A stretch of DNA of 64,000 nt, from positions 65,100,001 through 65,164,000 of the forward strand of contig OZ024746.1 in assembly GCA_964016885.1 (NCBI GenBank), in the 5' to 3' direction. The translations under genes and the position numbers were made by a program. The notes under the pieces are model-generated. The model was not told where the DNA came from. It did no database searches and saw only the letters and a program-made list of their open reading frames with translations. Positions 27,703-40,573 of the stretch are shown in pieces; positions within the stretch are counted from its first letter, which is position 1, and the number at the start of each line of letters is the position of its first letter. This DNA comes from Eledone cirrhosa (lineage: Eukaryota).

Positions 27703-27752
27703 TTTCAACTCTACTTTTGAAAAGCAGAAGAAGTGCGAAACCGGTAAATGAA
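27703..27752 (+). ncRNA. Variant-core (U3-A8) hammerhead motif in pLTR; mirror ~23543-23590 (-)
   Basis: UUGAAAA 27717-27723; stem II gca(g)/(c)tgc; GAAA; palindromic ACCGGU; GUA; stem I short and bulged. Confidence 0.55.
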
Positions 27753-29231
27753 CCAAATAAATATATATATTTTTAAAAAATAAGCCTCCAGTTGCATTTT
27801 CGATTTCATCTTTTTTTCTTTATACTTTCACTCGTGTAGGACACCTCGGTATTTTTCATTTTGTAAAAAAATAAAAAAACAAACAAAAAAACCTCACTTT
27901 CTAATATATATATATATATATATATATATATATATATATATATATATATATATATATATATATATATATATATATATATATATATATATGTATATATATA
28001 TATATATCATAAAGTATGTCTATAGGAACATTTGATAAAAATATACACCATTTCCTCTCTCAATTAGCATAATTAACAACATAATAAATCAGTTAGACCA
28101 GGCTATAAGATTAAAAGGCTCCTATGAAGAAATATTTGATAAATACACGACCGCAGCCTCTTCGCGGCCGACCGCAATAGAATATTTACCCAACATTTCA
28201 ACAGCACGTGGGAATCGACTAAATATACCGTCAACCATCCACAATTAGGTATAAAATTAAAGTTAGAAGAAATGCGTACACTCTTACCATATATATATAT
28301 ATATATATATATACATAAGCAGAAGGGATATTCAATTTGTAATGGATCTCACACAAAATAATATATAATTTTCTATATATATTTTGGAGTAAATCATTCA
28401 TCTAATTTAATGGTTAACAAACAAAATTGGAGTTATCTTTCCTTTCTCAATCGTGCAAACATAAACATATTATGTTTGATAATCTGTATAGCTTCGCTAA
28501 ATTAACATTATTCTGAAAACATTTTTAATGTTGAACAACATTTTTGAATCCACAAATTGTTCTACTCTCACAACTTGAACCACCTATTTTAAAGTAAAAT
28601 ACAAAATCAACGTCCTTCGTAACTCATATTTGATATATAAACAACTAATACATACGCAATATATTAATATATATATAGATAGTTATATACATATAACCTA
28701 ATGTAATAAGATAAAGTACTTACAACCATTTATTCTTCATATAATCTAATTTATTATATATACAATATTATAACTCATAATATAGGTAAATAATCCCCCC
28801 CCCCCCAAAAAAAAATTAACGTAAATGCTAGCTCATCTTCCTTTCTCTTCTTTCCTATGCATACAATAACTTATCATAATTATTTAAATTTTCCATAGCG
28901 TCTAAAATAACGTTTTTTTCAGCACTTTTACCTAAACCTCATTTGCATACTCATCTTAATAATTTGAAATATCTGACTTTTCTTCCCTTATCTCTTCACT
29001 ATCCAAGGATAACTTGAACTGTTAAGGTATTTTTCTTGGTTATGTCAAAATTTATAAAACATACTTCGTATTTTATCTGATGATAGCGTATCAAAATGTT
29101 GGTACCCTTAAAATATATATAATAGAATAAATATGGTTTTATTAATATAGTTTCCATTTATTTAATATCATTGTATATAAATATATATATATATATATAT
29201 ATATATATATATATATATATATATATATATA

Positions 29232-29913
29232 AATGGAAAAGAATGAAACGAAATTTCATTTCTCACTCTTAGTACGGCTGATACTTAAAGATAAGTATGT
29301 ATACGTACATACATATATGTGTACAGACATACAGTAGTATGTATACATACATGCACACATATATATATATGTGTGCATGTATGTATATATATATATATAT
29401 ATATATATATATATATATATATATATATATACATACTACTGTACGTCTGTACACATATATGTATGTACGTATACATACTTATATTTAAGTATCAGCCGTA
29501 CTAAGAGTGAGAAATGAAATTTCGTTTCATTCTTTTCCATTTATCGTTTTCGGTTGCCCGGCCGACTAACTCACTCGATATGCAGATTAGGCTGCTCAGC
29601 CGTTAATATGCATAAGGAGAGTATATACTTTCAAACGTTCAATATTCTGACAGAAAGGTATACGATGCTGACGATAGCTAATAAGCTTGAAACTAGTACA
29701 TCGTTCCTGTATCAATGTTGAACAAAAGGGCGACGATGGTTGCCGAGCCCTGTACGGCGTAATTAGGGCTGTTTGTTTACAAGCAAACCGAGCATTATAA
29801 TAAATGTTCGGTAAACCCATACGTACATATATATATGTGTGCATGTATGTATACATATACATGCTACTGTACGTCTGTACACATATATGTATGTACGTAT
29901 ACATACTTATATT
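29232..29913 (+). mobile_element. Retrozyme family B, single unit with 5' inverted segment
   Basis: 29232-29345 is the reverse complement of ~29432-29543; body homologous to the 59-64 kb units; HHR 29662-29704 (acgatg-CUGACGA...GAAAC-ua-GUA-catcgt). Confidence 0.85.
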
Positions 29914-30001
29914 TATATATATATATATATATATATATATATATATATATATAAATATTTACATATACATAAAGTTATAGATATATGTCTAATTTTGAGT
30001 T

Positions 30002-30081
30002 TGTCTCCTGATGAATCCTAACTCTGGACATTTCCTATTAATTGGATGTCTAAAAATACGGATGAAACCATGGTAGAGATA
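30002..30081 (+). ncRNA. Type I hammerhead ribozyme with extended stem II; downstream 30090-30363 has a diverged inverted relative at ~28005-28290
   Basis: tgtctc/gagata stem I; CUGAUGA 30008-30014; atcc...ggat stem II; GAAAC-caug-GUA, cut after 30075. Confidence 0.8.
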
Positions 30082-37169: not shown

Positions 37170-39275
37170 TTGGAATAAATGCTCTGAAATAGCGATATAT
37201 ATGTGAATATAGACATAGAATATTCGAAAATATTCTGTATGTTTATAATAAACATTTTGAAGACCTAATCGCTATAGAATAGAATACGTCACGTATTACA
37301 ATTAGATTCTCGATAAAAGCAAGGGAAGTAATCTACGCGTTTCATTCTTGTTAGAAATCTTCAGGACTACATATCCAGTGCTTTTATCGAGAATGACACA
37401 GCTAGAGACTTATAGAATACTTAGCTGTGTACAGGAACTGGTTTGAAAGAGCGGTTGCCGGTCCGGCAGAAATTAGAAATTGGAATAAATGCTCTGAAAT
37501 AGCGATATATATGTGAATATAGACATAGAATATTCGAAAATATTCTGTATGTTTATAATAAACATTTTGAAGACCTAATCGCTATAGAATAGAATACGTC
37601 ACGTATTACAATTAGATTCTCGATAAAAGCAAGGGAAGTAATCTACGCGTTTCATTCTTGTTAGAAATCTTCAGGACTACATATCCAGTGCTTTTATCGA
37701 GAATGACACAGCTAGAGACTTATAGAATACTTAGCTGTGTACAGGAACTGGTTTGAAAGAGCGGTTGCCGGTCCGGCAGAAATTAGAAATTGGAATAAAT
37801 GCTCTGAAATAGCGATATATATGTGAATATAGACATAGAATATTCGAAAATATTCTGTATGTTTATAATAAACATTTTGAAGACCTAATCGCTATAGAAT
37901 AGAATACGTCACGTATTACAATTAGATTCTCGATAAAAGCAAGGGAAGTAATCTACGCGTTTCATTCTTGTTAGAAATCTTCAGGACTACATATCCAGTG
38001 CTTTTATCGAGAATGACACAGCTAGAGACTTATAGAATACTTAGCTGTGTACAGGAACTGGTTTGAAAGAGCGGTTGCCGGTCCGGCAGAAATTAGAAAT
38101 TGGAATAAATGCTCTGAAATAGCGATATATATGTGAATATAGACATAGAATATTCGAAAATAAAAAGCACTGGATATGTAGTCCTGAAGATTTCTAACAA
38201 GAATGAAACGCGTAGATTACTTCCCTTGCTTTTATCGAGAATCTAATTGTAATACGTGACGTATTCTATTCTATAGCGATTAGGTCTTCAAAATGTTTAT
38301 TATAAACATACAGAATATTTTCGAATATTCTATGTCTATATTCACATATATATCGCTATTTCAGAGCATTTATTCCAATTTCTAATTTCTGCCGGACCGG
38401 CAACCGCTCTTTCAAACCAGTTCCTGTACACAGCTAAGTATTCTATAAGTCTCTAGCTGTGTCATTCTCGATAAAAGCACTGGATATGTAGTCCTGAAGA
38501 TTTCTAACAAGAATGAAACGCGTAGATTACTTCCCTTGCTTTTATCGAGAATCTAATTGTAATACGTGACGTATTCTATTCTATAGCGATTAGGTCTTCA
38601 AAATGTTTATTATAAACATACAGAATATTTTCGAATATTCTATGTCTATATTCACATATATATCGCTATTTCAGAGCATTTATTCCAATTTCTAATTTCT
38701 GCCGGACCGGCAACCGCTCTTTCAAACCAGTTCCTGTACACAGCTAAGTATTCTATAAGTCTCTAGCTGTGTCATTCTCGATAAAAGCACTGGATATGTA
38801 GTCCTGAAGATTTCTAACAAGAATGAAACGCGTAGATTACTTCCCTTGCTTTTATCGAGAATCTAATTGTAATACGTGACGTATTCTATTCTATAGCGAT
38901 TAGGTCTTCAAAATGTTTATTATAAACATACAGAATATTTTCGAATATTCTATGTCTATATTCACATATATATCGCTATTTCAGAGCATTTATTCCAATT
39001 TCTAATTTCTGCCGGACCGGCAACCGCTCTTTCAAACCAGTTCCTGTACACAGCTAAGTATTCTATAAGTCTCTAGCTGTGTCATTCTCGATAAAAGCAC
39101 TGGATATGTAGTCCTGAAGATTTCTAACAAGAATGAAACGCGTAGATTACTTCCCTTGCTTTTATCGAGAATCTAATTGTAATACGTGACGTATTCTATT
39201 CTATAGCGATTAGGTCTTCAAAATGTTTATTATAAACATACAGAATATTTTCGAATATTCTATGTCTATATTCAT
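37170..39275. repeat. Family A retrozyme array, head-to-head: ~3.2 units on - (37170-38161) and ~3.6 units on + (38162-39275)
   Basis: 310-bp period; HHRs at 37328-37370, 37638-37680, 37948-37990 (-) and 38178-38220, 38488-38530, 38798-38840, 39108-39150 (+). Confidence 0.95.
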
Positions 39276-39341
39276 ATATATATATATATATATATATATA
39301 TATATATATATATATATATATATATATATATATATATATAG

Positions 39342-39472
39342 ATTGCTTTTGAAAACAGGTGGTAATACGCATGTAAGTAAATATTCTCTCTATCTGATGT
39401 AAACTTACATAGGTCAATAACTGAGTATAGATACAATGTAATATCACCATCTAGAAACGATCGTAAAGCAGT
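39342..39472 (+). ncRNA. U3-A8 variant hammerhead with long stem II
   Basis: 7-bp stem I attgctt/aagcagt; UUGAAAA 39349-39355; aggtggt/accatct stem II base; GAAAC-gauc-GUA, cut after 39465. Confidence 0.75.
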
Positions 39473-40479
39473 GAAGTATATCTCTAATGACTTGATTTTT
39501 TATTTCATTGTTTTAACTTATATCATGACTGTTTTCCTTTTAATGTTTTATTGTTTTCTGAGATTTATCTTAACCTACAACATTTTCAACATATGGATTA
39601 CATTGAGTTTTTCATACAGAATAGACCCCACAACTTACAGTGGATACCTCTGTGATATATATATATATATATATATATATATAACGAAGGAAATGTGGTA
39701 AGGAACCAGGTGGACCATAACGCACCAAAGTACTCAATACTTGAGGTAGTAGAGTGGATTCTGAATTTATTTTTCCACCTTTACTTCGTACGAACTTTCA
39801 TGTAGCTTGTTTTATATCTTTTAGAGTTAGCTTTAGTATATATTTTTCTCGGGACTCTGAATTATTATCTCGTATTAGTTCACTTTGCTGCACTGGGTGG
39901 TTGCTGGAATTGTGCCCGGGATGGAAACCTTTATTGTTTATTTCGTGGTAGTCTCTTTAGTATTTTGGCCCCTTTTGTTGACCCGTCACCGTATCATTTA
40001 CATACTTATACCTCTTAAAAGGGTCCTCGCCTATTCCGTCCCACCTAGTTCTTTTACTTATTTCGTTATTTCTTTATTTCTTTCTTTACTTCTTTCTTTC
40101 TTTATTTATTTATTTATTCTAGCCTAACAATATCTAGAGACCTAGGTCGTAGAATTTAATTTACTTTACTTTTTTCTTTACACTCTTTTGTTTTTCTTTA
40201 CACTTATTTGCTTTTCTTCACTCTCAGTATTTTTTCTTTCCTATATATTTCTACCCCCATTGTTCTACCTACCGTTCCGACTTCCTCCCCCCCCCCCTCC
40301 CCTGTATCTTCTTTGACCTCATGCCCAGCTGTAGCTGGCACTACAAACGCTTGATTGGGTCTACTCCACCCCCTCCCCTCTTTCTCCTACTGGCAGGTTT
40401 AGCCACCATCTCCCCTACTAATTTGCAACCACAGAATTACTACTGATTTTTGACAATCACTTTGACCATATATGGAATT

Positions 40480-40573
40480 ACCCCTTGAGAAGATCGGCTA
40501 TTTAAATACCAGGATAAATTTTCATTTAGTCCAGAATTAGCCGTCGAAACGGCTTGAGCTCAGCTGTCGGGGT
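40480..40573 (+). ncRNA. U3-A8 variant hammerhead ending PLE remnant ~39683-40585
   Basis: acccc/ggggt stem I; UUGAGAA 40485-40491; cggcta/tagccg stem II; GAAAC-ggc...gcu-GUC, cut after 40568. Confidence 0.8.

Follow-up and report, generated by a model that had tools for sequence, protein, structure and literature searches.

Must the hammerhead ribozymes carried by Penelope-like elements (PLEs) cut for these elements to move? The direct data that we found on this question are solely in vitro (Frangieh 2024, PMC11167929). It is raised anew by a 64,000-nucleotide stretch of the Eledone cirrhosa genome (assembly GCA_964016885.1, contig OZ024746.1, positions 65,100,001 to 65,164,000; hereafter the window), in which seven hammerhead-like sites carry the core UUGANAA, with U3-A8 in place of C3-G8. 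We favor, with moderate confidence, a reading in which all seven belong, as type I hammerhead motifs, to end repeats of four PLE families, their fold likely kept by selection and their self-cleavage probably slow or optional for copying, given that lineages with a C3·A8 mismatch or an A13C change have also multiplied. The U3-A8 swap itself is already published; what is new is its scale, plus the amplified mismatch and A13C lineages. Overall, the locus offers a known variant and a useful natural experiment, with matched amplified sets of C3-G8 versus U3-A8 (family D), U3-A8 versus C3·A8 (family A), and A13 versus C13 (families B and C) that could separate optional catalysis from new active cores.

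Seven sites in four families of elements

All seven cores reported in a preliminary description of the window were borne out, namely UUGAAAA at 27717(+), 23572(-), 31523(+), 30567(-), and 39349(+), UUGAUAA at 34562(+), and UUGAGAA at 40485(+), with a Watson-Crick U3-A8 pair possible at 7/7. The 7-mer by itself is common (198 window matches versus 149±13 in shuffles). A first descriptor that permitted no bulges recovered 1/7 sites, while a second that tolerated bulges and left positions 3, 7, and 8 free recovered five, the exceptions being 27717 and 23572, which have only 2 clean pairs in stem I. Scores were 48 for 40485, 46 for 34562, and 43 for 39349, the three sites at which three stems surround the core with stem I open (type I), and 29 for 31523 and 30567, within the shuffle range. 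Descriptor specificity is modest, with 6 window matches at a score of at least 37 versus 0-1 in each of 8 shuffles, and 22 at a score of at least 28 versus 5-12 per shuffle. The unconstrained minimum-energy fold of 40485 is a three-way junction with an open core; fold z-scores are weak (-0.3 to -1.3 for the six U3-A8 sites folded), and an Rfam scan of the window returned no hammerhead among the best 150 of 230 matches at E≤1. We take the motifs as real on family size, that is, on thousands of exact-pattern copies and 0 for the reversed pattern. G12, A13, A14, A15.1, and U16.1-H17 are present in families A, B, and D. At least 11 canonical C3-G8 hammerheads, on which the preliminary description was silent, were detected in the window by the second descriptor, and a twelfth, at 21347, by the first.

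Copy numbers were obtained by exact-pattern searches of the 3.0-Gb genome, in which each reversed pattern gave 0; they are lower bounds, with mirror pairs counted twice. Family A (40485, with 34562 as a relative at about 70% identity) has 37,220 3' halves and 5,066 cores, two patterns that differ in strictness; families B (27717/23572) and C (31523/30567) together have 24,405 copies; and family D (39349, 36951, 35115, and 40804) has 10,739 complete motifs. Genome-wide, U3-A8 cores number roughly 29,000, a sum of ~24,300 from B and C (100/100 listed; 64 copies with C3), ~3,700 from A by subtraction, and ~970 from D, extrapolated from 9%. The earlier expectation that searches requiring CUGANGA would miss such motifs is thus supported, and in this genome alone censuses of that kind overlook motifs by the tens of thousands. 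U3-A8 is nevertheless a minority: 200 kb drawn from 20 arbitrarily spaced places gave 16 candidates (versus 4-8 in shuffles), comprising 12 with C-G at positions 3 and 8 (11 of them full CUGANGA), 1 U3-A8, and 3 other.

The PLE context proposed for the motifs was confirmed, as PLE open reading frames (ORFs) adjoin them. Specifically, the motifs lie at the 3' end of PLE ORFs and, inverted, at the 5' end, with insertions in (TA)n, an arrangement of motif and ORF also drawn in Craig 2021 (PMC8557442). Like Hydra-clade PLEs, for example Hydra-1_Obim (PMC8557442), families A and D (L126, L095) show RWR (not RWK), DKT, a CxCX5C linker, a C-terminal GIY-YIG, (TA)n targets, a 3' hammerhead, and no GxKF/Y; this assignment is by motifs, with criteria from Craig 2021. 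Family A differs in its U3-A8 or C3·A8 core with full stem III, its longer 3' untranslated region (UTR), and its unit of about 3.1 kb. Families B and C are likened by motifs to the Neptune clade, sharing GLKF, DKG, and a CX2-5CxxC linker before a C-terminal GIY-YIG, and differ from it in being U3-A8 throughout, with A13C fixed in C. Family C is linked to a Neptune-type reverse transcriptase (RT) in L121-L123. A Naiad PLE was ruled out for family A by its C-terminal endonuclease (EN) and DKT motif, instead of an N-terminal EN and DKA. At locus L126, an open ORF of 719 amino acids from the first Met lies between two family-A U3-A8 motifs. Its frame (L126:3579-5936) stays open over the 67 codons that separate the first Met from a point inside the hammerhead stem III loop, which places the predicted cut site in frame upstream of the ORF. 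Pfam returned no match for this ORF and only a sub-threshold RVT_1 for L123, while a protein homolog search gave 2,050 matches at E≤1e-50 among 8,000 scored, with 38-54% identity among the 120 listed. A majority of family-A insertions (26/30 loci, L001-L030) consist of the 3' half of the motif, without a core, in very short fold-back pairs that look like miniature inverted-repeat transposable elements.

The stems differ among families. Stem I has 4 bp in most listed family-B copies, 2 in both window B copies, and 3 in family C, and the window's two B copies are therefore weaker in stem I than most of their family. Cofolded dimers of B, C, and D gave -19.9, -20.3, and -12.0 kcal/mol, versus -10.6, -10.0, and -0.4 kcal/mol for two monomers; the pairing of palindromic stem III between two copies in these families is a prediction only.

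Compensatory change at positions 3 and 8

Family D provides the clearest evidence that positions 3 and 8 change together. A hand count of the first 100 of its 10,739 motifs gave 91 C3-G8, 9 U3-A8, and 0 mismatches. When positions 3 and 8 were masked, the 5 U3-A8 rows formed one supported branch among 40 rows, such that a single label change is needed on the tree, and two stem I pairs changed on both strands along that branch. N7 is A or C inside the branch, and N7=C is present on both sides of the switch. Family D is a real compensatory C3-G8/U3-A8 switch with compensatory stem I changes. A C·A apposition at the stem II base and a 100-nt stem II are kept in both its C3-G8 and U3-A8 subfamilies (window 36951 and 39349; L091-L120), and published Hydra motifs likewise show extra bases at the stem II base (Craig 2021, PMC8557442).

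Families B and C tell of retention rather than switching. The first 100 of their 24,405 copies are all U3-A8, and C3 occurs in 64 of the 24,405, every one with A8. The two families share UUGAAAA, the stem II base, and the palindrome, despite RTs that are only 53-58% identical. As a canonical control, family E has 93 intact C3-G8 cores and 1 C3·A8 among the 100 first-listed of 25,571. This family (window 59459-63514 and 29668) places its hammerhead in roughly 500-nt tandem repeats, resembling retrozymes, and its 25,571 genome copies often form arrays spaced 420-500 nt; a Hydra-like RT fragment lies at window 58089-58541.

These counts are what would be expected if every spreading element needed an active hammerhead, with U3-A8 fully compensating for C3-G8 and mismatched cores being dead copies, and the description of U3-A8 double variants as active in vitro (Perreault 2011, PMC3088659) points the same way. 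This strict form of catalytic selection is already weakened by family A, considered below, and we regard it as improbable. Selection on the covariation, as earlier proposed, is accordingly upheld in part: the compensatory switch in D and the persistence of U3-A8 in B and C across divergent RTs speak for it, while strict covariation fails in family A.

How often has U3-A8 arisen? In File S2 of Craig 2021 (PMC8557442), 26/26 Hydra-clade rows are C3-G8, from which U3-A8 is probably derived, about three times (in A, in the D branch, and in B plus C). The seven sites do not count as independent of one another; they represent four families and, probably, about three events.

Mismatched lineages and the need for cleavage

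Within the window, positions 3 and 8 do always change together, as the preliminary description stated, but this does not extend to the genome, where 1,267 of 5,066 family-A cores are C3·A8. Mismatches thus approach, without reaching, the frequency of U3-A8 in this family, at a quarter of its cores. A hand count found 63 of the 5,066 without A8, of which 36 are U3·G8 and 4 C3-G8. For comparison, the background U3C change affects 64/24,405 in B and C versus 1,267/5,066 in A. Other family-A core sites are not relaxed: freeing all seven core positions lifts the count only from 5,066 to 5,306, and U4, G5, A6, and A9 together are altered in just 240/5,306 copies, ~1% per site, similar to position 8 (63/5,066).

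The C3·A8 cores have a shared history. After positions 3 and 8 were masked in an alignment of 440 nt, 64 of 98 rows were kept for a tree (the 34 dropped rows, 14 of them C3·A8, had truncated or divergent upstream sequence), in which 25/26 C3·A8 rows group together with support (97/86) and U3-A8 rows are their sisters. This clade contains supported subclades of 23, 19, and 10 rows, a nesting that points to successive source elements carrying the mismatch. Two direct tandems (L195, L196) are C3·A8 at both ends, and flanks differ among the fetched C3·A8 loci, which suggests independent insertion sites. Median identity among copies is 98.2% for the young U3-A8 group and 94.4% and 89.3% for the C3·A8 groups (9-16 copies each); on these identities, the C3·A8 groups are older than the youngest U3-A8 group. 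None of 9 C3·A8 loci has an unbroken full ORF, while L126, L128, and L129 have long open ones. A small divergent U3·G8 group of family A also occupies one supported branch of a shorter alignment (7 rows; L037, L188, L189, L193, L194). The nested clade of C3·A8 copies, with its subclades and 1,267 members, and the U3·G8 group are difficult to reconcile with a need for an active hammerhead in every spreading element, as is the finding that hammerhead mutants leave PLE insertion in vitro unaffected (Frangieh 2024, PMC11167929).

Family C adds a third departure. A13C was noted at 31523 and is confirmed there, and its mirror 30567 carries it too; it is a family trait rather than decay of a single copy, fixed in family C and present in 11,050 of the 24,405 B and C copies, a number that also counts against strict catalytic selection. 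Two A13C subfamilies have median identities of 97.9% and 95.5% (9-16 copies each), and the ORFs are about 94% identical between loci. Elsewhere the core of family C is unaltered, as are stem II and the palindrome, and stem I has 3 bp; judged from sequence, and lacking A13, its motif is filed as hammerhead-like and not as a ribozyme.

We propose the following account, in which cleavage is not required in each round of copying. RNA would be read from a tandem of end repeat, ORF, and end repeat, and cleavage by the motif would follow GUH, with family A acting as a monomer and B, C, and D as dimers joined at the palindromic stem III. Three origins of U3-A8 from C3-G8 are probable, via a mismatched intermediate that would be tolerated because insertion uses mostly uncut RNA. 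With the hammerhead under weak long-term selection and cleavage dispensable per round, the mismatched state could be either a passing stage or a lasting one for a lineage, and U3-A8 could be attained more than once. If an intact core brought a slight advantage, this would account both for the fixation of U4, G5, A6, and A9 and for the contrast in family A between its youngest intact elements, which have U3-A8, and the older, decayed C3·A8 clade. A speculative possibility is that C7-G8 decayed first, as a CpG, and that C3U came next. By analogy with other ribozymes, the cores of the sister lineages, in thousands of copies, are likely crippled, and this account is in line with the in vitro data of Frangieh 2024 (PMC11167929).

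Several points weigh against optional cleavage and repeated origins. First, the weakness of C3·A8 and A13C is assumed from other ribozymes. Second, family C and the C3·A8 clade have preserved the rest of the core, stem II, and stem III, a pattern compatible with continued function, and ORF divergence within those lineages, at 6-14%, is too small to expect much decay. Third, when 89 rows were aligned over a shorter stretch, 3-6 changes of the C3·A8 label were required and the root could not be placed reliably, which leaves the direction and number of events uncertain. Fourth, among 12 hand-picked family-A rows, covariation did not exceed shuffles (484/500 as high). Finally, the published C3-G8 outgroups were found with CUGANGA descriptors and are hence biased, and no RT was found beside the U3-A8 subfamily of D, the clade of which would follow from motif homology.

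The intact remainder of these motifs can also be read as a sign that the odd cores are active in their own context, with C3·A8 and U3-A8/C13 cutting with the element protein, in dimers, or after A-to-I editing of A8 to give C3-I8. Replacement of G8 by inosine keeps much hammerhead activity. The 97.9%-identical subfamily of C fits such activity, as does run X4, which at L183:1290-1612 has A>G at 7 places versus 1 each in X1 and X2; X4 is a different sample, its kind not on record, and would give a weak hint of editing if it is RNA. Contigs of three runs contained no A>G at position 8 of a C3·A8 copy, which is no evidence, as contigs drop rare variants. Published work lends some support, in that the hammerhead of PAc, a Poseidon element of Anolis, is protein-assisted (PMC11167929) and triple variants of the U3/A8/C13 type fall outside pairwise scans (PMC9901934). 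However, edited templates would leave G8, yet family A has 4 C3-G8 versus 1,267 C3·A8 cores; single core mutants were low in activity in Roberts 2023 (PMC9901934); and stem I of family C has only 3 bp. Cutting in trans by B also appears unlikely, since the stem I strands of B and C match in 2 pairs only. We therefore consider activity in context doubtful. A bolder version, to which we assign a low probability, is that U3-A8/C13 of family C, and perhaps C3·A8 in A, would be a working alternative active site, protein-assisted or switched by A-to-I change at position 8, that is missed by single and pairwise scans and by CUGANGA and GAAA descriptors and has been selected in a young family of 11,000 copies.

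Conversely, the hammerhead shape might be kept for a noncatalytic job, such as binding the RT or placing an internal start of reverse transcription, with catalysis irrelevant in all these families. Insertion ends fall a short way 3' of the motif, and copies extend across the predicted cut site; family A has far more 3' halves than cores (37,220 versus 5,066, with patterns that differ in strictness); and RNA-seq ends were not found at the cut site in Frangieh 2024 (PMC11167929). Set against this, conservation is strictest at the unpaired catalytic positions, and the family D switch restored the tertiary 3-8 pair, which is important for the active conformation. We consider a purely structural role unlikely, and weak selection on a fold whose cleavage is slow or optional remains our preferred reading.

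Published systems and features of the window

Natural U3-A8 cores are not new, having been described in Perreault 2011 (PMC3088659) and, for PLEs, in Cervera and De la Peña 2014 (PMC4209133). The former reported natural covariation from C3-G8 to U3-A8, as here, in several scattered examples, unlike the present families; it rejected core-mutant matches, mainly from repeats, so that lineages of the present kind would have been filtered out. The latter found about 1,300 U3-A8 matches in Schistosoma, and PLE motifs in general with low in vitro activity. The Cercyon PLEs of Schistosoma mansoni resemble the present families in having type I motifs in PLE end repeats, palindromic stem III, a U3-A8 core missed by the first descriptor, and mostly single or opposite-strand copies; they differ in number (about 1,300 versus roughly 29,000 here) and in element type, those here being Hydra- and Neptune-type. 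No amplified C3·A8 or A13C lineages are reported in the main-text parts of the Cercyon account that were covered, nor in the other literature searched, although the supplements of Cervera and De la Peña 2014 and some further papers may list such variants; the same search found no cephalopod hammerhead census. PAc likewise has a hammerhead at the junction of pseudo-long terminal repeat (pLTR) and ORF and a tail at one insertion end, but is C3-G8, needs protein for its ribozyme, and owes its evidence for dispensability to engineered mutants in vitro, where here natural mutants have been amplified in a genome (Frangieh 2024, PMC11167929). In Roberts 2023 (PMC9901934), the G3-C8 swap alone rescued one type III construct, other single and double mutants of the region being low in activity, which suggests that U3-A8 too may be slow.

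Table 1. Elements and hammerhead motifs of the window, in window coordinates; cut positions are predictions.
Feature	Position	Strand	Remarks
Family B Neptune-type PLE 3' end repeat (pLTR part)	23469..23839	-	Sense to ORF; 94.6% identical inverted copy of 27461-27824
Family B minimal type I hammerhead motif	23543..23585	-	U3-A8 core 23578-23572; 4-bp stem II, palindromic stem III, only 2 clean pairs in stem I; predicted cut between 23549 and 23548
Decayed Neptune-type PLE ORF	24700..27400, ends approximate	-	RT, CX2-5CxxC linker, GIY-YIG-like C-terminus; GLKF, DKG; interrupted by stops and frame breaks
Inverted family B 3' end copy, 5' side of element	27461..27824	+	
Family B hammerhead motif	27710..27752	+	U3-A8 core 27717-27723; stem II reduced to 3 bp through a private change
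Family C hammerhead motif, U3-A8 and A13C	30537..30580	-	Core 30573-30567; mirror of 31523
Family C hammerhead motif	31516..31559	+	U3-A8 core 31523-31529, A13C at 31545; weak 3-bp stem I
Inverted RT fragment of Hydra-type PLE related to family A	32624..33487	-	74.6% nucleotide identity to L126; 76.7% amino-acid identity over 176 residues
3' part of Hydra-type element with inverted RT at 32624..33487	33489..34746	+	EN tail, 3' UTR, hammerhead, tail; ends in (TA)n
Divergent family A hammerhead motif	34557..34652	+	U3-A8 core 34562-34568; 5-bp stem I, AUC triplet, one stem III mismatch; predicted cut after 34647
Canonical C3-G8 family D hammerhead motif	36941..37092	+	In-window counterpart of 39349
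Further canonical family D copies	cores 35115 and 40804	-	
Family D hammerhead motif, U3-A8 subfamily	39342..39472	+	Core 39349-39355; 7-bp stem I, palindromic stem III; predicted cut after 39465
Young family A Hydra-type PLE, 5'-truncated 3' end	40073..40588	+	Ends in (TA)n; 91.7-100% identity to L126
Family A hammerhead motif	40480..40573	+	U3-A8 core 40485-40491; stems I, II, and III all formed, GUC triplet; predicted cut after 40568; clusters with youngest U3-A8 subfamily

In the decayed Neptune-type element at ~24700-27400, three pieces of which gave no match in Pfam, the motif at 23572 lies in sense orientation and that at 27717 is inverted (Table 1). Beyond the PLEs, a 310-nt tandem repeat occupies window 1-1400 and 37164-39324, the second array flipping orientation near 38163. 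The two arrays differ at one site, CTGATGA in the first and CTGAAGA in the second, where the descriptor scores no hammerhead. Broken pol pieces of a long terminal repeat retrotransposon (RVT_1, RNase H, and integrase) lie at 50747-54325 (-), a tRNA-like match (31.7 bits) at 15247-15317, and repeats resembling short interspersed elements at about 34050-34170 and 22500-22620.

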